From contig NC_135810.1 in NCBI RefSeq assembly GCF_964213995.1, positions 80,290,001 through 80,354,000 of the forward strand: a stretch of DNA of 64,000 nucleotides. Reading direction: 5' to 3'. The position numbers and the translations under genes are program-made. Below, piece after piece: positions 8,496 to 51,050 of this stretch (the first letter of the stretch is position 1; the number at the start of each line of letters is the position of its first letter). The DNA is from Mustelus asterias (Eukaryota). The notes under the pieces were generated by a model. It saw nothing but the letters and a program-made list of their open reading frames with translations, made no database searches and was not told the origin of the DNA.

Positions 8496-9748
8496 GTCAG
8501 CGATAATCATGGAGGAAGAGGAAAAACCTCAGAAATGATTGAAGAGTAAATGTGTTGATTTGGTAAATTGGCTTGCAATCCAATCTTGTCCATTTCCTGG
8601 GGGTGGGCAGGGCTGAGATGCTACAGCAACCTTCAGTCAGCCTTGACTACACTGGGGGGATTGAGTGCTAAAGTATGTCAGTGGGTGCAACATCAGACAC
8701 ATTGCCATGAATCCATAGAATCCCGACAGTGCAGAAAGAGGCCAATCGGCCCATCAAGTCTACACCAACCATAATCTCACCCAGTCCCTATCTCCGTAGC
8801 TCCAGGTATTTAACCTAGCTCATCTCCCTGACAAACTAAATGGCAATTTAGCATGGCCAATCAACCTGACCTGCACATCTTTGGAAGGAAACCGGAGCAC
8901 CTGGAGGAAACCCACACAGACACGGGCAGAACTTGCAAACACAGACAGTGACCCAAGCCGGGAATCGAACCTGGGTCCCTGGTGCTGTGAGGCAGCAGTG
9001 CTAACCACTGTGCTACCATGCCTCCCAGTGCAACAATCTAGTGCAGCTCACCACATGGAATGTGTTGGTCTCAGTGAAGATACTCCTTGAAATAATTCAC
9101 CGTTCCCTTGGTGTGACTGAAAAGGCCCAGTGGGCGTTTACTGTCTTAACCGTTCCACAGGAAATGCTTCTAAAAGTGCAAAACCCACTGCTCAGTGATT
9201 TATGTCAATTTACATTTCAAATCCGCCATCATACTTTGCAAATCAAACAAATAATGATTTCCCTCTACTTAGCCTCGTACATAAATAAATCATTATGTAC
9301 ATCGCTTTGATGGCAGTAAAATAAGTTTTCAATGCAGATTTCTGGAGATAGAGACGTTTGGCTGTTGAAGCAAGAGGCAAGGCGATTGTGCAGAGTATAG
9401 CTGCCTTTGAAAATGGATGGGTTGACTTTAAAATGCAAAACAAAGAGAAAAAAAGAAATGGTATTTTGAGCAGTCACTTGAAAAAAGTAAGTTCAGATAG
9501 AATGGTTGAGAACGGTGCTACATCTGTGCTGGGATGATCTGGAAACAAGCCTATTCCTCCATGATTATCGCTTTAGCACTCAATCCCCCCAATGTAGTCA
9601 AGGCTGACTGAAGGTTGCTGTAGCATCTCAGCCCTGCCCACCCCCAGGAAATGGACAAGATTGGATTGCAAGCCAATTTACAAAATCAACATATGTACTC
9701 TTCAGTCATTTCTGAGGCTTTCCCTCTTCCTCCATGATTATCGCTGAC
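8496..9748. repeat. Inverted duplication 8496-8673 / 9571-9748
   Basis: 178-bp arms are reverse complements with few mismatches; TTCCTCCATGATTATCGCT occurs at 9554-9572 and 9727-9745. Confidence 0.93.
8711..9026 (-). mobile_element. HE1-type V-SINE with CR1 tail
   Basis: Minus strand GTGGTTAGCACTGCTGCCTCACAGC..GGTTCGATTCCCGG head; tail GGGCCGATTGGCC..GGGATTCTATG. Confidence 0.9.
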
Positions 9749-12172: not shown

Positions 12173-12530
12173 TGGGTGGCACGGTGGCACAGTGGTTAGA
12201 ACTGTTGCCTCACAGACTCAGGGACTTGGGTTCGATTCCGACCTTGGGTAGCTGTCTTGAGTTTGCCATGTGAACCATGTTCTCCCGTGTCTGCGTCGAT
12301 TTCCTTCAGGTGCTCCTGTTTTCTCCCACAGTCTAAAGATGTGCAGGTTAGGTGGATTGGCCATGCTAAATTGCCCCTTAGTGTCCTAAGATGGGCAGGT
12401 TAAGGGGATCAGCGGGGTAAATATATGGAGCTATGGGGATAGGGCTTGGGTGGGATGGTCTGTTGGACAGGCAGCAGAGACTCGATGGGCTGAATGGCCT
12501 CCTTCTGCACTGTAGGGATTCTATGATTCG
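12173..12530 (+). mobile_element. HE1-type V-SINE with CR1 tail
   Basis: GGTGGCACAGTGGTTAG head, GGTTCGATTCC B-box, tail GGGCTGAATGGCCTCCTTCTGCACTGTAGGGATTCTATGATT. Confidence 0.9.
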
Positions 12531-23609: not shown

Positions 23610-24330
23610 GATTACATTCAGAGTAAAGCTGAGCAGGTTGAGTTATACTCACTGGAGTTTAGAGGAATGAGAGTGATCTGATTGAAACATTCAAGCTTCT
23701 GAGGGGACTTGACAGAGTACATGCCAAGAAGCGGGCGGCACAGTGGTGCAGTGGTTAGCACTACTGCCTCACAGCGCCAGGGACCCGGATTCAATTCCGG
23801 CCTCAGGTCACTGTCTGTGCGGAGTTTGCACTTTCTCCCTGTGTCTGTGTGAGTTTCCTCTGGGTGCTCTTGTTTTCTCCCACACTCCAAAGATATACAG
23901 ATTAGGTGGATTGGCCATGCTAAATTGACCCCTAGCTTCAGTGAGATTAACAGGGTAAATACGTGGAGTTACAGGGATAGGGCCTGGGTGGGATTGTTGT
24001 TGGTGCAGGCTTGATGGGCCAAATGGCCTCCTTCTGCACTGTAGGGATTCTATTATTCTAAGATGCTTTCCCTCATGGGGAAATATAGAACCGGGAGCAG
24101 AGTTTTAGAATATCTCATTTAGGATAGAGATGAGGACTCTATTAATCTATGGAATTCTGTTCCCCAGAGAACAGTGGAGGCCATTGTGTATATTCGAGAC
24201 AGATTTCTGATCTACAAGCGTGTCAAGGGTTATGGGGGGAGGTAGGAAAGATCAACTGTGATCTTATTGAATGTTGGAACAGGTTCAGGAATTACCTCTA
24301 TCTGTTCCTATTTTTTATGTTCTTACATCC
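23610..24330 (+). mobile_element. CR1 3' fragment split by a SINE
   Basis: CTGGAGTTTAGAGGAATGAGAG.TGATCT before 23733; continues after 24060 to tail TGTTCCTATTTTTTATGTTCTTA. Confidence 0.75.
23733..24060 (+). mobile_element. HE1-type V-SINE with CR1 tail
   Basis: Full head, body and tail recognisable. Confidence 0.9.
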
Positions 24331-26790: not shown

Positions 26791-29457
26791 AAGGAGAGGG
26801 AGTTGCACTTTTGATTAAGGAAAACATCACGGCAGTACTGAGAGGGGATATATCCCATGGTTCATCCACTGAGTCTATATGGGTTGAACTGAGAAATAAG
26901 AAGTGGGAAATCACTTTGATAGGGTGGTACTATAGGCCCCCAAATAGTTGGTGGGAAATTGAGGAACAAATATGTAAGGAGATTACAGATAGCTCCAAGA
27001 AAAAAAGGGCAGAAATAATAGGGGATTTTAACTTTCCCAACATTGACTGGCGCAGCCATAGTATTAGAGGCTTGGATGGAGAGAAACTTGTTGAGTGTAT
27101 TCAGGAGGAATTTCTCATTCAGTATGTGGATGGCCCGACTAGAGAGGGGGCAAAACTTGACCTCCTCTTGGGAAGTAAGGAAGGGCAAGCGACAGAAGTG
27201 TTAGTGAGGGATCACTTTGGGACCAGTGGCCATAATCCTATTAGTTTTAAGATAGCTATGGAGAATGATAGGTCTAGTCCAAAAGTTAAAATTCTGAATT
27301 GGGGCAAGGCCAACTTTCAACAGTTAATTGTGGGAGTCTGTGGGAAGGCAAAGGGACGTCTGGTAAGTGGGAGGCTTTCAAAAGTGTTGTTAACCAGGGT
27401 TCAGGGTAAACATATTCCTCTTAGAGTGAAGGGCAAGGCTGGTAGAAGTATGGAACCCTGGATGACTCAGGATATTGAGGCCCTGGTCAAGAAGAAGAAG
27501 GAGGCACATGACATGGCAGCTGGGATCAAGTGGATCCCTTGAAGAGTATAGAGGGTGTAGGAGTAGAGTTAAGAGAGAAATCAGGAGGCAAAAAGGGAAC
27601 ACGAGATTGTCTTGGCAGATATGGCAAAGGAGAATCGAAAGAACTTCTACAAATACATAAAGTGCAAAATAGTAACTAGGGAGAGAGTCGGACCTCTTAA
27701 GAATCAACAAGGTCATCTATGTGCGGATCCACAAGAAATGGGTGAGATCCTAAATGAATACTTCTCATCAGTATTCACTGTTGAGAAAAGCATGGATGTT
27801 AGAGAACTTAGGGAAATAAATAGTGATGCCTTGAGGAGTGCACATATAACAGAGAAGGAGGTGCTGGAAGTCTTAAAGCGCATCAAGGTAGATAAATCCC
27901 TGGGACCTGATGAAGTGCATCCCAGGACACTGTGGGAGGCTAGGGAGGAAATTGTGGGTCCCCTAGCAGAGATATTTGAATCATCGATAATCACAGGTGA
28001 GGTGCCTGAAGATTGGAGGGTGGTTGATGTTGTGCCTTTGTTTAAGGGGGGCTGCAAGGAAAGCCCTGGGAACTACAGGCTGGTGAACCTCACATCTGTA
28101 GTGGGTAAGTTGTTAGAAGGTATTTTGAGAGATAGGATCTACAGGCGTTTAGAGATGCAAGGACTGATTAGGGACAGTCAGCATGGCTTTGTGAATGGAA
28201 AATCATGTCTCACAAATTTGATTGAGTTTTTTGAAGGGGTAACCAAGAAGGTAGATGAGGGCAATGCAGTTGATGTTGTCTACATGGACTTTAGCAAGGC
28301 CTTTGACAAGGTACCAGATGGTAGATTGTTGCATAAGGTTAAATTTCACAGGATCCAAGGTGAGGTAGTCAAATGGATACAAAATTGGCTTGAAGACAGA
28401 AGACAGAGGGTGGTTGTAGAGGGTTGTTTTTCAAACTGGAGGCCTGTGACCAGTGGTGTGCCTCAGGGGATTGGCGTTGGGTCCACTGTTATTTGTTATT
28501 TATATTAATGATTTGGATGAGAATTTAGTAGGCATGGTTAATAAGTTTGCAGATTACACCAAGATTGGTGGCATGGTGGACAGTGAAGAAGGTTATCTAA
28601 GATTGCAACAGGATCTTGATCAATTGGGCTAGTGGGCTGACGAATGGCAGATGGAGTTTAATTTGGATAAAAGCGAAGTGATGCATTTTGATTGATCGAA
28701 CCAGGGCAGGACTTACTCAGTTAATGGTAGGGCCTTGGGGAGAGTTATAGAACAAAGTGATCTAGGGGTACAGGTTCCTTGAAAGTGGAGTCACAGGTGG
28801 ACAGAGTGGTGAAGAAGGCATTTGGCATGCTTGGTTTCATTGGTCAGAACATTGAATACAGGAGTTGGGACGTCTTGTTGAATTTGTACAAGACATTGGT
28901 AAGGTCACAATTGGAAAACTGTGTACAGTTCTGGTCACTCTTTTATAGAAAGGATATTATTAAACTAGAAAGAGTGCAGAAACAATTTACTAGGATGTTA
29001 CCGGGACTTGATGATTTGAGTTATAAGGAGAGGTTGGATAGACTGGGACTTTTTCTCTGGAGCGTAGGAGGCTGAGGGGGGATCTTATAGAGGTCTATAA
29101 AATAATGAGGGGCACAAATCAGCTAGATAGTCAATATCTTTTCCCAAATGTATGGGAGTCTAAAACTAGAGGGCATAGGTTTAAGGTGAGAGGGGAGAGA
29201 TACAGAAGTGTTCAGAGGGGCACTTTTTTCACACAGAGGGGTGTGAGTGTCTGGAACAAGCTGCCAGAGGTAGTAGTAGAGGTGAGTACAATTTTGTCTT
29301 TTAAAAAGCGTTTAGACAGTTATATGGGTAAGATGGGTATAGAGGGATATGGGCCAAACACAGGCAATTGGACTGGCTTAGGGGTAAAAAATGGGTGGCA
29401 TGGACGAATTGGGCCGAAGGGCCTGTTTCCATGCTGTAAACCTCTATGGCTCTATGA
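26790..29457 (+). mobile_element. CR1 LINE, most of ORF2 (APE endonuclease + RT) with several frameshifts
   Basis: YYRPPNS, IIGDFNFP, NYRLVNLTS, SQHGF, YMDFSKAFDKV motifs; tail GGGCCGAAGGGCCTGTTTCCATGCTG..CTCTATG. Confidence 0.95.
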
Positions 29458-37100: not shown

Positions 37101-38142
37101 TCGAGTCTCCCTTGCAAGTCCACCTTTCCGAAGGTGAGTGATGCTCCCTGGGCTGTACTTGTCCTCTTCCCACTCCTCAAGTCTCCTTCGCAAGTCCGCT
37201 TTTCTGTTCTTCCCAAAGGCTTGGAGACCTGAAAAAATGCAGTGTTAACAGAATGGGGCTGAGCGAGCAGCTTTGGTGGAACAATGAGGGCCATGAGGCT
37301 TCCTGGATTGTGTCTGATCTGCTGTGGAGCTGTCAATCTGAGCCGGTCAAAGTGGCCAGACTGCACCTGCTGCTCATTCAGACCATGAAAGGGAACCCCC
37401 GACTGACATCTGTCAGTCTGAGGACTTCAAAGGGACCTTCCCACTCCTGGGGCTTTTGAGTGCCAGCATATAGGGAGGCCAGAGCACCTGGCGTAAAGCC
37501 TGGTAATGGTATATAAATGTCTATTTTTGAATGGGTGGGAACCTGATTGGGGCTGGCGGGGAGGGCTGGGAGAATCGCGAGGGGTTTGCTGCCCGGTTGG
37601 AATCTTGTTTTAGCCCTGATGGCTGATTCAACGAGCCATCAAGATCCCCACCCGAGGCTAGCAGGCCCGGTGAATCCCTTCAGTACTTTTGTAAAATAAT
37701 CATTTTAATATGGGTTTGGAAAGCAGCTGTTTCTTTTATATATGGTTTCATAAAATCTAGCTGTTTCTTTCACATTTATTCTTATTCCTGGATGGAGCCA
37801 CCATCAGAATGGTTGTTCTCCAGCAGCACGTTACATGAAACAGCAGCTTTATAAATAATACAGTTAATACACAATGTCTGAGACTTATTAGTGAACACAA
37901 CAAGACTGTAAAAAGAAGGATATCTGCTTACTTGCAGCCTGCTGTGGGAACAGCAGAATCTGGCTGATTTTGTGCTATTATTTGTCTGAACAACAGGCTA
38001 TGGCATGATTTAAGCTTTCCGCTCAATGTTGTGTCTTTGTCAGCTTAGTGTCTTCTGAAGAGGAATCTGATTTAAAGTGTGGTATTTTGTTCATAAACAG
38101 TGTAAGACAATCCTAATGTTGTATATTAAAACGTGAAAGTGT

Positions 38143-38483
38143 CATAGAAATCATAGAAACCCTACAGTGCAGAAGGAGGCCATTCGGCCCATCGAGTCTG
38201 CACCGACCACAATCCCACCCAGGCCCTACCCCCACATATTTTACCCACTAATCCCTCTAACCTACGCATCCCAGGACTCTAAGGGGCAATTTTTAACCTA
38301 GCCAATCAACCTAACCTGCACATCTTTGGACTGTGGGAGGAAACCGGAGCACCCGGAGGAAACCCACGCAGACACGAGGAGAATGTGCAAACTCCACACA
38401 GACAGTGACCCGAGCCGGGAATCGAACCCGGGACCCTGGAGCTGTGAAGCAGCAGTGCTAACCACTGTGCTACCGTGCCGCCC
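38143..38483 (-). mobile_element. Young HE1-type V-SINE with CR1 tail
   Basis: CpG-rich full-length copy with tail repeat TTTCTATGA. Confidence 0.93.
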
Positions 38484-40208
38484 AAGATAATGCCGATCTT
38501 TTGAAGGTTCTTTTGTTACTAAATATCTGGCCGTTCTGTATAATGTCAAAGCTATTTTTTCCAGTTGGGAATAGAGGAGAAATGGTCATAATTCTCCTCA
38601 AATATGGAGTAATGAAATGTTTTAAAAGAATTCCTTTATTACCAGCACAAACACAATTGTTTTTTTAATTTAAGAATCTTGCAACTTTAAATTGAACGTG
38701 GATATCTGGAAGATTCAACACCTGAGACATTGAGCCAACACCTTACATATTCATGTGGTTAACCCACATGTTTTCTTCAAACTGTATTTAAAGCCAATAT
38801 CAGTAAAACAAACTGTATCTGCATTTCAGAACTTCAACTTATAACACTATAATTTGTAAGAATAAAAACATTGATTGAGGTCAGTGTTTTTGCAGGAGTG
38901 TAGGTGGAGAAGTTAGGATTATGGGGAATTAAGAATATTTTTATAATTAATTTACCTTTCGTTGTCAATTTGTGAATCCCATTAATAGTTCAAATTGATA
39001 AGAGTTTGCAAAGTTTCCTACCAGTAAAAATAAGCCTCGTCTCCTCAAACACTTATTATCCTCTGTATTTTGTTTCCCGTGAAAAGGTGACATCCATTTG
39101 TTTTCACTTCTGGTGTTCTAGGTTTAAATTCAGTCAGATATAAATAACCGTGATTTTCTCATTGATGATTGGTGTTAGTCTTGTGAAATTTGGCCTCCGC
39201 CACAATTTTGTCAGATTCGTACTTGGCTTTTGATTTATATTATGATGCTGCTATGAAGTTAAATTTGGTTCATGAGGCGTTACCTTCTGGGAACACACAC
39301 TGTCCAGAGGGTAAGTTAGGCCTATTACCTAGATTATCAGATGAAGCCATTAACAGAACAGAACAATGACTACTCAGTGCTATTTTTACTTGAGACAGTT
39401 AGGCCCATGGGAAGATTTAGAGAAAAGTTCAAATTTACAATGTTGGAATGATTTCAATGCAATGGATTTACTTAAACGGGCAATATGGTGGCTATAGTTC
39501 TCTCATCGAAGGCAGGAGATTTTAATTCATCATGGTAGCTGGGCTCTTCCAATTCATGACACAAAGAGCAGTGAGATGGGTTGGAGGTTAAGCTTTTAGT
39601 TTCCTACACCTCTGAATAAATATTGGTGTGAAGCATGCTTGAGCTTTATATGAGTGACCAGTGAGACTGAACACAAAAAAACCTCTAGTGCAATTTGTAA
39701 CAACTATCTCAACTGAATATGTTTCACCAAATAAATTTGGTTGCTCTGTCCAAAAATGCATGGTAATTCAATTCCTTTGCAACATACAGCAAGCAGTAAT
39801 TTTAGTAGTGGATTTGCCAAGTAGTAGGAGAGGAATCTGGGGTGATGTTAATGGAGTAATAAGGAATCTCTCTCTCTCCCTTGAGTTAAATAAAGCCCTA
39901 TCTCTACAGTCTAAAAATCCAGCACTGGAGATAGAGGCACGATCAGAGAGACTTTGGAAAAAGACATCAGCAGAAAAATATACTTGAGATTTTTTCACTC
40001 TTTCTCGCTTCCTGGAAATAAGCGCAAACCCCCCAGTTCAAGAGATCAAGTCCTACCAATGAACTGAGATCTTGTAAGAATTGCAACATCTTCTACCTGC
40101 TCCAAGGAGCCAGATAACTTCAATCAGCCACAATATTTAATAATCTACGCTCCAAAGACAGGCAAAGAATTATTAACCTTATTTGGACTCTTTCCATACT
40201 TCTGATAC

Positions 40209-40572
40209 ACGTGTATGTGTGTGCATGTGTGTGCGCGTGTGTGCACACATGTGTGTGTGCACGTGTATGTGTGCATGCCTGAATGTGTGTGTGTGTATGT
40301 CCGTGGTGTGTGTGTGCCTGCGTGTGTGTGTGTGTGTGTGTGCGCATGCCTGAGTGTGTGTGTTTGTGCGTGCGTGCATGCGTATGTGTGTGCGTGCGTG
40401 TGTTTGTGTGTGCCTTTGTGTGTGCGTGTGTGTGTTTGCGTGTGTATGTGTGTGTGTGTGCGTGCATGTGTAAGTGTGTGCGTGCGTGTGTGTGCCTTTG
40501 TGCATTGTGCGCCTGTATGTGTATGTGTCCATGCGTGTGTGTGTGCCTGTATGTGTATGTATGCGTGCGTGC
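40209..40572 (+). repeat. Imperfect (TG)n/(TGYG)n microsatellite
   Basis: Directly visible; resumes briefly after the CR1 tail (TGTGTGCGTG at 44571-44580). Confidence 0.97.
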
Positions 40573-41105
40573 GGAAAGGGAAGAGAGGGGTTAGGAGAGC
40601 GATAGTGGTGGGGGATGCGTCAGTTAGAGGCACAGACAGGCGATTCTGTGGGGGCGAACGGGACTCCAGGATGGTAGTCTGCCTACCTGGTGCTGGGGTC
40701 ACAGATGTCTCCGAGCGGATAGGAGGCATATTAAAAGGGGAAGATAAAGAAACGGATGTCATTATACACATTGGTGGAAATGACGTAGATAGAAAGAGTA
40801 GGGGGGTCCTAAGAGAGCAATTCAGGGAGTTGGGAAATAGGTTAAAAAGTAGGGTCACTAGGGTGGCCATCTCTGGGCTGCTCCCAATGCCTCGTGCCAG
40901 TGAGGCTAAGAATAGGGAGTTGGTTCAAATGAATGCATGGCTAAAGGACTGGTCCAGGAGGGAGGGCTTTATTTTCATAGACCAAGGTTTGGTTTTCAGG
41001 AGAGGATGGCACCTGTACAAGAGGGAGGGGTCACAACTAAGTTGGAAGGGCACAAATATCCTGGCTGGGAGCTTTGCTAATGCAGTTCGGGGGGGTTTAA
41101 ACTAG
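40573..41105 (+). CDS. CR1 ORF1p C-terminal SGNH/GDSL esterase-like domain (partial)
   Basis: [33 protein letters not shown]. Confidence 0.88.
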
Positions 41106-44029
41106 TATGGCAGGGGGGTGGGGATCAAACTATTAGGTCTATAAGTGTGGTGGCTGGGGACGAGCTTGGGGCTGGGACAAGGTTGGCAAAGAAGGAGAGC
41201 ACTCTGGGGGAGGACGACCTCACTGAGCCTGGAGGTCTGGAGTGCTTATACTTCAATGCAAGGAGCGTAGCAGGTAAAACAGACGAACTTGGGGCCTTAA
41301 TGCGCACGAGGAATTTGGATGTGGTTGCGGTGACAGAGACTTGGTTGAAAGAGGGACAGGACTGGCAGCTGAATATTCCAGGGTACAAGTGTTTTAGGCG
41401 AGACAGAGGAGGGACCAAAAGAGGTGGGGGAGTAGCGGTATTGGTTGGAGAGCATATTACAGCGGTGCAGAGGGAGGACAATTCGGAGGAGTCGTGTAGC
41501 GAGTCACTCTGGGTGGAGCTTAGAAACAGGAAAGGCGCAGTCACTATGTTGGGGGTGTACTACAGGCCCCCCAACAGCCCAAGGGAAGTGGAAGAATGGA
41601 TATGTCAGAAGATACTGGATAGGTGCAGGAAATATAGGGTTGTTGTAGTGGGAGACTTCAATTTCCCTGGTATAGACTGGAAATCGCTGAGGGCAGGGAC
41701 TCTGGATGGGGAGGAATTTGTAAAATGTGTACAGGAGGGTTCGTTGGAACAATATGTGGACAGCCCAACTAGAGAGGGGGCTATACTGGACCTGGTACTG
41801 GGGAATGAGCCCGGTCAGGTCTTCAAAGTTTTGGTTGGGGAACATGTGGCAAATAGTGACCACAATTCTGTTAGCTTTAGGATAGTGATGGAAAAGGATG
41901 AGTGGTGTCCCAAGGGTAAGGTGTTGGATTGGGGGAAGGCTAACTTTATTGGGATCAGGCAGAAATTGGCAGCTCTTGATTGGGAGAGGCTGTTTGAGGG
42001 TAAATCCACATCTGGTATGTGGCAGTCTTTTAAGGAACGGTTGTTAGGGCTATAGGACAAGCATGTGCCTGTAAAAAAGAAGGATAGGAAGGGTAGGATT
42101 AGAGAACCGTGGATAACCAGGGAAATTGAGGGACTGGTCAAAAGGAAAAGAGAGGCACATGTTAGGTCCAATCAGCTAAAAACGGAGGGAGCTCTGGAGG
42201 AGTACAATGAAAGTAGGAAAATACTCAAACGGGGAATTAGAAGAGCAAAAAGGGGTCACGAAATGTTCTTGGCAGACAGGATTAAGGAGAATCCCAAGGC
42301 ATTTTATTCATACATTAGGAACAAAAGGGTTGTTAGGGAAAAAATCGGACCTCTCAGGGACAAAAGTGGGGACTTATGCTTGGAGCCCAAAGAGGTAGGG
42401 GAGATCCTAAATGAATACTTTGCGTCGGTATTCACAAAGGAGAGGGATGTGTTGACTGGGAGTGTCTCGGAGGGGAGTGTTGAACCGTTGGAGAAAATCT
42501 CCATTACAAAGGAGGAAGTGTTAGGTTTGTTAGAGAATATAAAGACTGACAAATCCCCAGGGCCTGATGGAATCTATCCAAGGCTGCTCAGGGAGACGAG
42601 AGGTGAAATCGTTGGGCCTCTGACGCAAATCTTTGTCTCGTCACTGGACGCAGGTGAAGTCCCAGAGGATTGGAGGATAGCCAATGTGGTCCCGTTATTT
42701 AAGAAGGGTAGGAAGGATAACCCGGGTAATTATAGGCCGGTGAGCTTGACGTCCGTGGTGGGGAAGTTGTTGGAGAAGATTCTTAAAGATAGGATGTATG
42801 CGCATTTAGAAAGAAATAAACTCATTAACGATAGTCAACATGGTTTTGTGAGAGGGAGGTCATGCCTCACTAACCTGGTGGTGTTTTTTGAAGAAGTGAC
42901 CAAAATGGTTGACGAAGGAAGGGCCGTGGATGTTGTCTATATGGACTTTAGTAAAGCGTTTGACAAAGTCCCTCATGGTAGGCTAGTGAAAAAGGTTGGA
43001 TCCCATGGGATAAAGGGGGAGGTGGCTAGATGGGTGGAGAACTGGCTTGGTCATAGAAGACAGAGGGTGGTAGTGGAAGGGTCTTTTTCCGGCTGGAGGC
43101 CTGTGACTAGTGGTGTACCGCAGGGCTCTGTATTGGGACCTCTGCTGTTTGTGATTTATATAAATGATCTGGAAGAAGGAGTAACTGGGGTGATCAGTAA
43201 GTTTGCGGACGACACAAAACTGGCAGGACTTGCAGATAGTGAGGAACATTGTCAGAGGCTACAGAAGGATATAGATAGGCTGGAAATTTGGGCAAGGAAA
43301 TGGCAGATGGAGTTCAATCCTGATAAATGCGAAGTGATGCATTTTGGTGGGAATAATGTAGGGAGGAGCTACACGATAAATGGAAGAACCATAAAGGGTG
43401 TAGAGACGCAGAGGGACCTGGGTGTGCAAGTCCACAGATCTTTGAAGGTGACGTCACAGGTGGAGAAGGTGGTGAAGAAGGCATATGGCATGCTTGCCTT
43501 TATAGGACGGGGCATAGAGTATAAAAGTTGGGGTCTGATGTTACAGATGTATAGAACGTTGGTTCGGCCGCATTTGGAATACTGCGTCCAGTTCTGGTCG
43601 CCACACTACCAGAAGGACGTGGAGGCTTTGGAGAGAGTACAGAGGAGGTTTACCAGGATGTTGCCTGGTATGGAGGGGCTTGGTTATGAGGAGAGATTGG
43701 GGAAACTGGGGTTGTTCTCCCTGGAAAGACGGAGGATGAGGGGAGACTTAATAGAGGTGTATAAAATTATGAAAGGCATAGATAGGGTGAACGGTGGGAA
43801 GCTTTTCCCCGGGTCGGTGGAGACGTTCACGAGGGGTCATAGGTTCAAGGTGAAGGGGGGGAGGTTTAACACAGATATCAGAAGGACATATTTCACACAG
43901 AGGGTCGTGGGGGCCTGGAATGTGTTGCCGGGCAAGGTGGTGGAGGCGGACACACTGGGAACATTTAAGACTTATCTAGACAGCTATATGAACGGAGTGG
44001 GAATGGAGGGATACAAAAGAGTGGTCTAG
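41096..44029 (+). pseudogene. CR1 ORF2 (APE endonuclease + reverse transcriptase) with a single in-frame TAG at 42053-42055
   Basis: ORFs 41147-42055 and 42065-44029 are in the same frame; YFNARS, TETW, GDFN, SDH, QHGF, GVPQGS, FADD all intact. Confidence 0.95.
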
Positions 44030-44221
44030 TTTGGACCAGGGAGCGGCGCGGGCTAATTGTTCCTTGTTTCTCGTTTCAAGGCTTCATTCTATGATCATCT
44101 TGCTGGTGCCAGTACAGAGCGAGACTGCGGATAGTTGGGAACCTGTCTCGGGGGCAGGGAATTCATATGGTGTTCGTGGAAGTGGAAATGACTAGGGTTG
44201 GGAAGCATTTTCCGATCAGGG

Positions 44222-44351
44222 CCATTGTGATCTCCTGGACTCGTTTCGATCGCCTCAGGGGGTCGGAGAGGAATTTCCCAGATTTTTTTTCCCCATATTG
44301 GCCCTGGGGTTTTTCACTCTGGGTTTTCGCCTCTCCCTGGAGATCACATGG
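44222..44351 (+). other. Predicted multi-stem RNA structure in the CR1 3'UTR
   Basis: Nested pairings TGTGATCTCC/GGAGATCACA, GGAGAGG/CCTCTCC, CCCAGA/TCTGGG, CCCCA/TGGGG and side hairpin GATCGCC/GGGGGTC. Confidence 0.75.
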
Positions 44352-46271
44352 TCTGGAATGGGGGGGTGGGGGTGAGTTAATAGGTTGTAATGAACAAAGC
44401 ATCGTAGCTGTGAGGGACAGCTCGGTGGATAGGATATTGGTATGTAGATAGGCTGGAAAATTGGGCGGGGATCCTGGATTCAGGATTCAATTCTGGACCG
44501 GGGAGCGGCGCGGGCTTGGAGGGCCGAAGGGCCTGTTCCTGTGCTGTATTGTTCTTTGTTCTTTGTTCTTTGTGTGCGTGAGGTGCCACATTTCTTATTA
44601 TTTTGTTCTTGGGTTTAGTGGCTAATAAACTTGCTCTTTCTTTGACTCAAGAAAGCCTCGTTGATTGGCTCCTTATTGTTCACTGCATAGATAGTAAAAC
44701 AAAAATGGATTTACAAATACATCTATGTGGAAAATAAATTTAAAAACCTTTGTTACGACTAACCCAGGAGGCCGGATACAGGAGGGAGAGTACACTCCTC
44801 CTCATCTAGTTGTGACAATGTCAAGGAACTGATACTGAGGCAGGATTCCATCTAATAACATCATAATCTTTTCTCTCTTGGTTTATGAATGGTCTGACCT
44901 TTGAAATATGAATACAGACTTTAATCCATTCTTGTGTTATTTGACTTGGTCCCAGTCATCGTTATTGAGCACATAACACACATGAAAGATTCAGATATGT
45001 TAAAACCAGAGAAAAGTTGATGTAGTTTTCACCATCATAACCCAGCAACTAATTTTGAAATACCTTTGCAGTTTGTATCCTCAATTTATATGTTCTATTA
45101 TTTCCATTGAAAAAATTCCATTCACTTTTTTCTATTTTTGCAGGAGAAGTGGAAGTCTTATTGTCAGTGTTCCAGATAATAACAATCGTTTGTGCCGAGA
45201 GAGACCATCATTCCTTTGGGCTGTATGCTCTTCACTGAGCTATTTTATAGGTGAATAATTGAAAATCATATTTCTCCATTCCGTGGAAAGCCACTCAGTA
45301 AGGAACCACTCAAATAATACAGCTGTTGAACCCAGCAGAATGTGGTTTCGTAAATAGTAGGGGTGGTGGAAGTCCTAATCTCTTAAGTCTGAAACAACAA
45401 TCAGGAACAGTCTGGGCTAGAGAACATAGCTCTGACTGAGTATCCAACGAGAATCAGTTAATTTGGAAGTGTTCTCATTTGGATGATTCTGATTAGCATT
45501 CTTTCAGAGCCCAACAGAGATGAAGGAATTTCAGGAATTGGAAGAGGTTATTTCACCAACTAATTATTTTTTTCCAAAGATTAAAATCAGTTAAACTTCT
45601 GCATTCCAGAATTGCATGTCTCGCTTGCATGAGCGGCAATGGTATTTTCAATTGTGGAAATTCTTAGGGAAATTCCCTTCATAGTCAATTATACCTTCTA
45701 GATAATGCCTCTTACAGGCATCAAAGCAGTTTCCTGAAGCTTTCTCCTAACCTAAATTCCTGATACCTGAAATCATCTTTGTTGCTTACCCCCTTCTATC
45801 TTGGGTAATAATATCCTTTCTATAGGTAGGGAGCTAGATCTAAATGCAATACTGTTGATGGTCTCAATTTTCCCACATGTTAATTTATTACAAATAAAAA
45901 GGGAGGGTATTGGAGGGTAAATCCATTTAATTCCCACTTTATTATCTGTAAATTAAGCCATTAGTTAAAGTGCTCGGACAGCAAAGGGACAGATAAGGGA
46001 GAGTCACCTGCAACTTTCACGGGAAAATTATATTTCCACAAGCAAGAGCTATTAGTTTGTGATTATATTGAAATATACAGCTGAAGGTTTTTTAAATACT
46101 GCAAGGAAGAATTTAAAAGATTTAACCTGAAATAAGAGTGCACATCTACAGAACATGACTCCAATGTAATTTTAACAAACCTCAAGCAAGAGAGAGTCAC
46201 AGATTCTCACATGGAGGTGTGCACATGGGGGATAGCTTCCCAGATAAACCAGCTTATGTTCGAGAAGATTT

Positions 46272-47597
46272 TGGGGCGATTCTCCTAGCTCGGGAGACAT
46301 AGGTGAAGCTGTGTACTGGGCGCCACAGCCTCTGCGTCTCCGGCCATGTGATTTCCAGCACCGTCAGCTCTGTGCCAGAAATTGGTGCGGAGCTGATTAA
46401 AATATTTAAATCAGCATTTAAATATCATTAGTAGACCCAGGACTGAAGTCTCCAGGCCTGCTAGCCTCTACCCCCTGACAGAGGTGTTTCACTCCAGCGG
46501 GGTTTACAGTAGCTCCCCACTAACGGGGAGCTGGTGGCCCAACCCCGCTGGAGTGAAGGGAGGCCATGGAGGCCCCCCAAGGAGGTTGGGGGGTAAGGGG
46601 GGTGCCCACTGGGCATTTCCATCCTGGAAGTGCCAGCTTGGCCCCCTGGCACTGCTCAAAGGGCACCTTGGCACTGCCCACTGGGCATCGGGCAGTGCCA
46701 AGTGAATGTGGCCTATTGGGGGCTGAGCCTATTGGGGCAGGGCCTCTGGGGCAATCGGTGCAGCTGGGGGGGTCCCGCTGCCACTCTGCACTTGGGATCC
46801 GTGACAGAGGGAGGGTGAACAGCGATCGGGGCTGCCCATTGGGGTGGGGGTCAGCTTTCTGAGGGGGGAGGGTTAGGGCTGGGGGTGGGGGGAGGGGTTG
46901 GGGCAATCAGGACTGCCGGGCGGGGGTGGGGGTGGTCAGGGCTGGTCAGTGATCAGGGAATGGAGGGGTCGCATGGCCAGCAATGCGGGGTCTCAGGGTT
47001 GACCAGCGATCAGGAGGCCTGCAGTGTGGGCTACTGCGCATGCGCCGATCTCGGTGCTGACAGATCGGTGCATGAGCAGTGGCCTTCTCAGTGCTGTGCT
47101 GCCAGCCTCTTCAGCGGGAATAGGCCCCGCCCTTAGCTTTTCATCGTGATTCGTGTTAGGGCTCTCTGTGATGCACAGAATGTGGGAGATTCATTTTGAA
47201 AGTCCCGCTGAAACAGCAAACAGATTTCATAGAGTCATAGAGGTTTACAGCATGGAAACAGGCCCTTCGGCCCAACTTGTCCATGCCATCCTTTTTTTTA
47301 AACCCCTAAGCTAATCCCAATTGCCCGCATTTGGCTCATATCCCTCATTACCCATCTCACCCATGTAACTGTCTAAACGCTTTTTAAAAGACAAAATTGT
47401 ACCTGCCTCTACTACTACCTGTGTCAGCTTGTTCCAGACACTCACCACCCTCTGCGTGAAAACATTGCCCCTCTGGACCCTTTTGTACCTCTCCCCTCTC
47501 ACCTTAAGCCTATGCCCTCTAGTTTGAGACTCCCCTACCTTACCCCAGTTTTTACGTGAATTCGGCACTTAGAAGTTTTTTGGGAGAATCCCACCCG
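46272..47597 (+). mobile_element. GC-rich Harbinger-like MITE with a nested CR1 fragment
   Basis: TIRs GGGGCGATTCTCC / GGAGAATCCCACCC. Confidence 0.78.
47228..47543 (-). mobile_element. CR1 3' end, same subfamily as 26790-29457
   Basis: Closely matches the reverse complement of 29150-29457. Confidence 0.92.
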
Positions 47598-50720: not shown

Positions 50721-51050
50721 CGGGGCGGCACGGTAGCACAGTGGCTAGGGGCCCTGCTGTCTCACAGCACCAGGGACCCGGGTTCGATTCCCGGCTGGGG
50801 TCACTATCTTTATGGAGTCTGTACATTCTCCCCGTGTCTGCATAGATTTCCTCCAGGTGCTCCGGTTTCCTCCCACAGTCCAAAGATGCGCGGGTTAGGT
50901 GGATTGGCCATGCTAAATTGCCCCTTAGTGTCAAGGGAACTAGCTAGGGTAAATGCTTGGGGTTATGGGGATAGGGCCTGGGTGGGATTGTGGTTGGTGC
51001 AGGCTCGATGAGCCGAATGGCCTCCCTCAGCACTGTAGGATTCTATGATT
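50721..51050 (+). mobile_element. HE1-type V-SINE with CR1 tail
   Basis: Full head, body and tail. Confidence 0.9.

Follow-up and report, generated by a model that had tools for sequence, protein, structure and literature searches.

CR1 LINE with an extended 3' untranslated region

The window, a 64,000-nt (64-kb) stretch of the Mustelus asterias genome (contig NC_135810.1, positions 80,290,001 to 80,354,000), carries on its + strand a 5'-truncated CR1 LINE that hosts a 439-nt module between ORF2 and its tail. The features of this element, numbered along the window, are:

40211-40571: (GT)n-type tract adjoining the truncated 5' end of the CR1 copy (tandem-repeat search)
40575..41102, + strand: 3' part of CR1 ORF1, GDSL/SGNH esterase (Pfam Lipase_GDSL_2)
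41081..44029, + strand: CR1 ORF2, endonuclease and reverse transcriptase (RT) (Pfam Exo_endo_phos, E 5e-15; RVT_1, E 9e-38)
44032..44054, + strand: upstream copy of a 23-nt direct repeat, beginning 2 nt past the ORF2 stop
44055..44493, + strand: inserted module, 439 nt, lacking in the empty form of the family
44442..44471, + strand: 30-nt ORF2-like piece in the module, 87% like the element's own ORF2 at 43269-43298 (E 1.5e-4)
44476..44489, + strand: two tandem GGATTCA units at the 3' end of the module (sequence)
44494..44516, + strand: downstream copy of the 23-nt direct repeat, with the 5' arm of the terminal stem-loop at 44505-44514
44505..44547, + strand: terminal CR1 stem-loop with a 10-bp basal stem and a GGGCC-GAAG-GGCCU cap (fold of 44455-44580, z -2.77)
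44549..44573, + strand: 3' microsatellite tail, 7-nt unit x 3.6 (tandem-repeat search)

The Lipase_GDSL_2 match in ORF1 (E 1.8e-7, 32.2 bits) falls slightly below the Pfam cut-off of 32.9, and ORF2 contains a single in-frame stop (42053-42055) ahead of its terminal stop (44027-44029). Among the best 120 of 7909 protein matches to ORF2, the nearest named vertebrate protein is that of Chiloscyllium (66%); Mobula follows at 58%, and bird and turtle proteins lie at 43-58%, which points to a cartilaginous-fish host. Three CR1 ORF2 proteins that are 70-75% identical to the focal ORF2 are filed as Carnobacterium, Klebsiella and Proteus (P0017, P0034 and P0102); their contigs span 1.6-3 kb and are probably vertebrate contamination in bacterial assemblies.

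The element combines the marks of a CR1, namely an esterase ORF1 (by the hit under the cut-off), an APE-RT ORF2 and a 3' hairpin followed by a microsatellite tail without poly(A). Its tail presumably resembles that of HER1. With HER1-like chondrichthyan CR1, which has a stringent 3' stem-loop, the element shares the esterase ORF1, the endonuclease-RT ORF2, the terminal hairpin and the microsatellite; by contrast, its 3' UTR is longer by the 439-nt insert, and it has sister copies without the insert. A HER1/HE1 pairing is listed for sharks and rays (PMC3747384). Genomic CR1 copies end in microsatellites, with no poly(A) (PMC13343379). The terminal stem-loop is presumed to be the RT recognition site, by analogy with zebrafish L2 elements (ZfL2), in which the need for a 3' stem-loop was demonstrated (PMC4176376), and with amniote CR1 (PMC4316615). 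An AATAAA at 44624-44629 lies in flanking DNA, 50 nt past the CR1 tail, and could serve the focal copy as a poly(A) site.

A family-wide insert between 23-nt repeats

The preliminary description of this DNA had reported 23-bp direct repeats at 44032-44054 and 44494-44516, and both copies lie exactly there. They read TGGACC(A/G)GGGAGCGGCGCGGGCT, are identical at 22 of 23 positions and are spaced 462 nt apart. With up to 3 mismatches allowed, the 23-mer matches the 64 kb at these two places only, and as two matches arose in 0 of 100 shuffles, the repeats are not due to chance. Elsewhere in the window, CR1 elements have short 3' ends. They lack the module, as the same description had said, but they belong to divergent subfamilies (~66% nucleotide identity) and also lack the 23-mer.

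The 30-nt ORF2-like piece suggests, from its sequence, that the module 44055-44493 is a patchwork, and variants at 44439 and 44441 in sequencing run X1 bring this piece even closer to ORF2. The GGATTCA units are possibly the tail of a donor LINE. The stretch 44055-44200, which flanks the structured core described below, gives no fold signal (z +0.61). Beside the second repeat, at 44492, the focal copy has a private T, whereas C stands in every aligned contig of X1, X14 and X15.

At least half of the words of 43900-44600 are present in 14 of the 23 listed runs, from 7 coded organisms, and because only 37% of this interval lies outside the module, those 14 runs must carry part of it. Contigs were aligned to the element for 4 of the 23 runs. 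For X1 we aligned 48,900 contigs, and their summed depths, which are not copy numbers, reach 0.8-1.5 million over the module, 2.4-4.9 million at the end of ORF2 and 9-11 million over the tail. Module depth in this run is flat and amounts to ~0.3-0.5 of that of the adjacent ORF2.

Filled and empty forms coexist within the family. The empty form appears as joints that skip 461-464 nt (X1 and X14) and as loose ends that run from 44054 directly into the tail. In X14, a near-identical contig (depth 129) stops exactly at 44054, the branch point of the filled and empty forms; the module contigs beyond it have depths of 30-83. The empty form is also found in a contig with 26 differences over 130 aligned letters, which suggests that the short form is the older state. 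Since empty copies are no rarer than filled ones, the module is dispensable. In X15 (contigs, for which an RNA origin is a guess), depth over the core bins is 29-129 thousand versus 9-35 thousand over the rest of the module, which suggests that other elements share the core alone. Out of 10 million reads in X23, only 6 single reads could be placed, some over the core at <90% identity, too few for use.

Asked whether it is family-wide or free-standing, the module thus comes out as family-wide, spread over runs from 7 organisms beside an empty sister form, and it is not a unique insertion of an annotated, unrelated repeat. The near-perfect 23-nt duplication and the 3' tandem 7-mer do resemble target-primed insertion, as would befit a small, independent element that moves into this site of CR1 tails again and again. 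Yet no listed contig or loose end joins a module border to non-CR1 DNA, all of the listed ends being CR1; in X1 the module has an even depth that stays under that of ORF2; and the window holds no second module copy, our covariance model finding the core only. Such a free-standing element, which had been raised beforehand, is scarcely credible, and most likely a master copy took up the insert once in the past. An essential RT-binding role, raised likewise, is unlikely, given that the empty form is abundant and that the usual terminal stem-loop is intact downstream.

The insert could also be a neutral passenger, that is, a piece of an old repeat that landed in a master CR1 and hitch-hiked with it, its fold having functioned, if ever, in the donor only. 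The abundance of a coexisting empty form, the patchwork make-up with its ORF2-like piece, the lack of a fold signal in 44055-44200 and the reduced module depth in X1 all fit this history, whereas the persistence of the insert in at least 7 organisms speaks against it. Evidence from the core, given below, bears on it further.

The core folds into a three-way junction with two U-rich loops

The computed fold of the module centers on the following elements:

44222..44351, + strand: structured core, a three-way junction closed by P1 (fold)
44222-44237 with 44337-44351, + strand: P1, with a bulge at 44225 and U.U at 44236/44338 (fold)
44238-44247, + strand: linker, 10 nt (fold)
44248..44264, + strand: P2 side hairpin, GAUC/GGUC including a U.G pair, followed by a G that is bulged or mismatched (fold, alignment)
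44265..44336, + strand: ENE-like arm (fold; compensatory changes relative to loci L001-L004, see below)
44265-71/44330-36, + strand: lower stem of the arm (P3), GGAGAGG/CCUCUCC, 7 bp uninterrupted (fold)
44272-76/44324-29, + strand: lower U-rich loop, AAUUU x UUUUCG, 5x6 nt (fold)
44277-82/44318-23, + strand: middle stem, 6 bp, CCCAGA/UCUGGG (fold)
44283-90/44310-17, + strand: upper U-rich loop, U8 x UUUUUCAC, 8x8 nt (fold)
44296-44304, + strand: apical loop, 9 nt, on the top stem of the arm, CCCCA/UGGGG (fold)

Four nested helices and a side hairpin had been described at 44222-44351, and our calculation reproduces them (-57.4 kcal/mol, z -4.64). In the context of 44030-44575, pair probabilities are mostly at least 0.85; values are lower in P1 for the outer pairs (0.45-0.71), in P2 for two inner pairs (0.17) and in P3 for the first pair (0.14), and each of the four U-rich strands is unpaired with a probability of at least 0.92. 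The z-score depends on the frame chosen: the core scores best among 224 sliding 140-nt frames over the element (-4.49), but a shift by 15 nt in the two directions yields -0.97 and -1.83, and the entire 551-nt UTR gives -1.31. A preference for the sense strand had been attributed to the G-U pair of the side hairpin, and this hairpin is gone from the antisense centroid; by z, however, the antisense core (-4.62) is equal to sense, so energy does not choose the strand.

Among the listed core variants of the family, the three substitutions and two indels all fall at unpaired positions (chance 0.07 for the substitutions). This sparing of the stems argues, weakly, against a neutral passenger. The apical region 44296-44306 shows complementarity over 7 nt to 44218-44224 and over 6 nt to both terminal-hairpin arms, 44520-44525 and 44528-44533, a possible alternative pairing or chance.

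Compensatory changes preserve the lower stem in a distant lineage

A metagenome motif scan returned four loci with the full motif:

L001 15-297, L002 955-1233, L003 1014-1293, L004 2969-3073: bird-like core-bearing loci, multi-copy and GC-rich

We describe these loci as bird-like from a CR1 fragment in L001, whose identity to CR1 proteins is 76-77% for stork, 62-65% for turtle and 39-41% for shark and ray. All four are predicted to fold into the same three-way junction, with one U-rich loop per unit. Where the window has GGAGAGG/CCUCUCC as the lower stem, they have AGGAAGG/CCUUCCU; pairing is complete (7/7) in 4/4 loci even as 3 of the 7 pairs are altered on both sides, a compensatory result reached in 2 of 500 shuffles. 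In the alignment of the five sequences, all 65 of 65 cells of 13 pairs can pair, compared with 43-63% for slid partners (pairs were counted in P2 and P3 only; MAFFT misaligned P1 and the arm interior). The letters of the P2 stem are identical, and the AA at the loop base and the junction geometry invariant, in 5/5 aligned sequences.

The search pattern had fixed 3 of the 7 stem pairs and restricted the remainder to purine/pyrimidine classes. Features outside this pattern are shared as well, namely the P2 5' strand (identical), the CUG of P1 and an upper stem of a C-run and a G-run. As a control we took 93 viral matches, devoid of structure, to a looser pattern: none has 7/7 pairs, and 3, 4, 5 and 6 pairs form in 36, 43, 9 and 5 of them. 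Strict motif scans returned no match in viral contigs or in prokaryote genomes. We set aside 56 prokaryote loci with half of the motif as chance matches, as they consist of the short 5' motif alone with at most 37 aligned positions. BLASTN with the shark UTR does not detect the bird-like cores at E<0.01, so the link between shark and bird is carried by motif and structure.

The upper U-rich loop has no counterpart in the bird-like loci and hence no covariation support. Tandem degenerate units of ~170-180 nt follow the core in three of the four loci (L001-L003), the second unit forming a U7 x U5 loop in L001 and L003, and the apical sequence varies among the loci. No CR1 ORF2 adjoins them, and in their present form they are not CR1 3' UTRs; they may be unselected relics. 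Frames around them, with long ones on the opposite strand, have no Pfam match (0/5 frames) and nothing in the protein atlas, where the best score is 0.79.

Xenopus CR1-2_XT has the 3' strand of the stem only, placed between ORF2 and the tail, in one record of a supplementary alignment with trimmed UTRs (PMC4316615). A motif of this kind had been ascribed to amphibian and reptile CR1 3' UTRs; it is seen here as that strand in Xenopus and in full in the four bird-like loci, but in no non-avian reptile among these hits. Together with the X15 depth, the Xenopus record suggests that the core exists in other elements.

Compensatory change across homologues is thus seen in 3 of the 7 lower-stem pairs. 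As the alignment amounts in effect to two lineages plus a fragment, we regard it as suggestive and below R-scape-level proof. In line with the preliminary description, the module behaves as an acquired structured RNA element: it is family-wide, has an empty sister form, and keeps its core pairing through compensatory changes in a distant lineage. That every core helix is intact despite a sequence that differs from the bird form is not what a neutral passenger would lead one to expect, and we consider such a passenger improbable.

The core resembles ENEs

ENEs place one or two U-rich internal loops between stems, and poly(A) joins these as U.A-U triples (PMC7583470, PMC13541005, PMC12501189). 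The two U-rich internal loops of the core, each set between G-C-rich stems and not singled out in the preliminary description, make stability the best fit among the functions offered beforehand. We lean towards reading the core as an ENE-like stability element acquired by a CR1 master, in which the computed fold would bind poly(A) and stabilize the RNA. A generic ENE descriptor, composed after the fold was seen, has 2 hits in the 64 kb (both strands), nested within the core on the sense strand, compared with a mean of 0.03 in shuffles (n=30). As is usual for ENEs, the core occupies the sense (+) strand close to the 3' end of the predicted intronless transcript, with ~220 nt between it and the end of the tail.

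ENEs also have G-C pairs immediately beside the U tract for A-minor contacts. In the lower loop there are two G-C pairs, kept from the U tract by AA x CG, unlike in PAN; the upper loop is closed below by an A-U and then a G-C pair, behind a CAC extra. The shark lower loop is left with ~3 U-U positions and has a base of AA x CG/UG. No A-run >4 nt occurs in the CR1 UTR. Because genomic CR1 has no poly(A) and the UTR no A-tract, the putative ligand would be a post-transcriptional tail.

Two U-rich loops split by a short duplex, here the 6-bp middle stem, are one mark of the dENE of TWIFB1. The adenosine triad of dENEs is absent, the middle stem having no A run, whereas all solved dENEs covered in PMC13541005 possess it (its position in TWIFB1 was taken by eye from the published sequence; PMC10855403). 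Likewise absent is the lower-domain pocket, which in dENEs comes with a 3-4-nt bulge and an interrupted A-minor stem (PMC7583470); the lower stem of the core is uninterrupted over 7 bp on a 2 x 2 AA/CG base. The three-way junction may take the role of the pocket. Nor does the core match MALAT1/MEN-beta, which have a genomic A-rich tract and a tRNA-like structure downstream. In this modeled fold the core plausibly works like an ENE while standing outside both the dENE and the MALAT1 groups.

Comparison with individual ENEs shows where the likeness lies. With the ENE of KSHV PAN RNA, the core shares the order of stem, U-rich internal loop and stem, situated close to the 3' terminus in an RNA without introns (PMC10855403, PMC7583470), and by eye its polarity: a 5'-side G below the loop, a C above it and a 2-nt extra on the 3' strand (PMC10855403). 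By contrast, the core has two adenosines at the base of the 5' strand, fewer U-U positions in the lower loop, a second loop and a conserved three-way junction. Like the dENEs of rice TWIFB1 and of other transposable elements (TEs) in plants and fungi and the ENE of Arabidopsis Evade, the core sits in a TE 3' UTR (PMC12501189, PMC7583470, PMC10855403); with TWIFB1 and the plant and fungal dENEs it further shares two U-rich internal loops with a short duplex between them, and a U5 strand followed by a 3-nt extra. Unlike a canonical dENE it lacks the triad, and it has an uninterrupted lower stem, two loop-base adenosines and a three-way junction beneath. The lower stem resembles that of MALAT1/MEN-beta by eye, most of all in the bird-like loci, with a purine-rich 5' and a pyrimidine 3' strand (PMC10855403). 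The U tracts of the core, however, have no C/G interruption of the MALAT1 kind, and compared with MALAT1/MEN-beta there is neither a genomic A-rich tract nor a mascRNA-like Rfam match.

The invariant P2 stem, junction geometry and loop-base AA (5/5) belong to no described ENE, and they count in favor of another role. Intronless retroelement RNAs require export signals. The core could accordingly be a protein-binding RNA element, serving nuclear export, translation or the loading of ORF1p or ORF2p; junction and P2 would be its functional parts and the U-rich loops flexible hinges, perhaps with the apical loop pairing to P2 or to 44218-44224, for which the 7-nt complementarity offers a basis. 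This reading leaves unexplained the near-pure U on both strands of the loops, the second loop in the shark and the tandem units in three of the four bird-like loci, and the apical sequence on which it partly draws differs among those loci. We regard it as a serious but unlikely contender.

Ribozymes are present in other retroelements, and a compact three-way junction with invariant bases might cleave itself, as a ribozyme of a class not described before, and thereby process the 3' end of the LINE. The Rfam search that had been proposed for the module offers no support: the window has no match at the gathering score and chance-level matches only at E-value thresholds, and 44030-44600 has none at E<=10 except a 13-bit chance match. 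By eye, the linkers lack hammerhead core motifs, and cleavage 220 nt before the tail would remove the RT recognition site. A ribozyme is therefore highly improbable.

Proposed origin and mechanism

The reading as an ENE-like element implies the following history. A CR1 master would have acquired, once, a 439-nt sense-strand segment just past its stop codon. The donor would most likely have been a 3' UTR from a different LINE lineage, and either target-primed reverse transcription or template switching would have put the segment in, duplicating 23 nt. From the sense orientation, the duplication, the tandem 7-mers and the 30-nt ORF2-like piece we infer a LINE-derived segment that arrived via reverse transcription. 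Because the stop lies 2 nt upstream of the duplication and the 5' arm of the stem-loop was rebuilt by it, ORF2 and the presumed RT recognition site were spared. With stop and terminal stem-loop intact, the longer form would have kept transposing and spread alongside the short form; the two forms are seen side by side, and the route of insertion is the conjectural part.

In the LINE RNA, the U-rich loops would take up downstream poly(A) as U.A-U triples, about three in the lower and five in the upper loop, with the tail capped by the G-C-rich lower stem together with the three-way junction. The intronless transcript would then be deadenylated more slowly and transposition would rise, as was shown for the plant LTR element Evade. 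This model builds on the polymorphism of the insertion, the computed fold, the sense-strand U-rich loops and the structure-preserving divergence of the lower stem; it supposes that the LINE RNA is polyadenylated, that its tail threads through the loops, and that decay is thereby slowed and transposition favored.

A stronger version, that the core is a working poly(A) clamp, ancient and functional, which hops between CR1 lineages, strikes us as possible but somewhat doubtful. Going further still, the clamp could be of a new architecture, date from the jawed-vertebrate ancestor, be passed on by CR1 as a 3'-UTR cassette and have been the source of the domesticated triple helices of MALAT1 and MEN-beta. 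The idea of descent arises because the lower stems are closely alike, and we hold this whole scenario to be very unlikely.

The ENEs described so far come from viruses, MALAT1/MEN-beta, plant, fungal and slime-mold elements and a few fish-retrovirus elements (PMC7583470). In the literature found, which covers the primary ENE surveys through reviews, there is neither an ENE in a LINE nor a description of the core motif; the words 'LINE', 'non-LTR' and 'CR1' are absent from a 2026 triple-helix review, and passages of PMC5786205, PMC6379651 and PMC12941219 give nothing further on CR1. The core sequence may already be catalogued without a structural reading, for example in Repbase/Dfam or in the supplements of PMC13343379 and PMC4316615. 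CR1 is the dominant retrotransposon group in most vertebrates (PMC13343379). If the ENE-like reading is true, the poly(A)-clamp strategy would extend to vertebrate LINEs, CR1 RNAs would bear poly(A) tails that are never seen in the genomic copies, and structural studies would gain a new triple-helix fold. With its filled and empty sister forms the family offers a natural experiment: a single long-read data set can give the RNA-to-DNA ratio and the tail length of each form.

Other features of the window

A possible exon near 45144 has stops in the one frame translated. Interspersed repeats of ~330 nt, 74-82% alike, lie at 8714-9027, 12173-12529, 23733-24070, 38135-38484 and 50723-51050 and are probably a SINE family. 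Two further CR1 3' ends, at 29147-29457 and 47227-47541, are 88% identical to each other and have a short UTR with the same GGGCC-GAAG-GGCC cap as the focal element.
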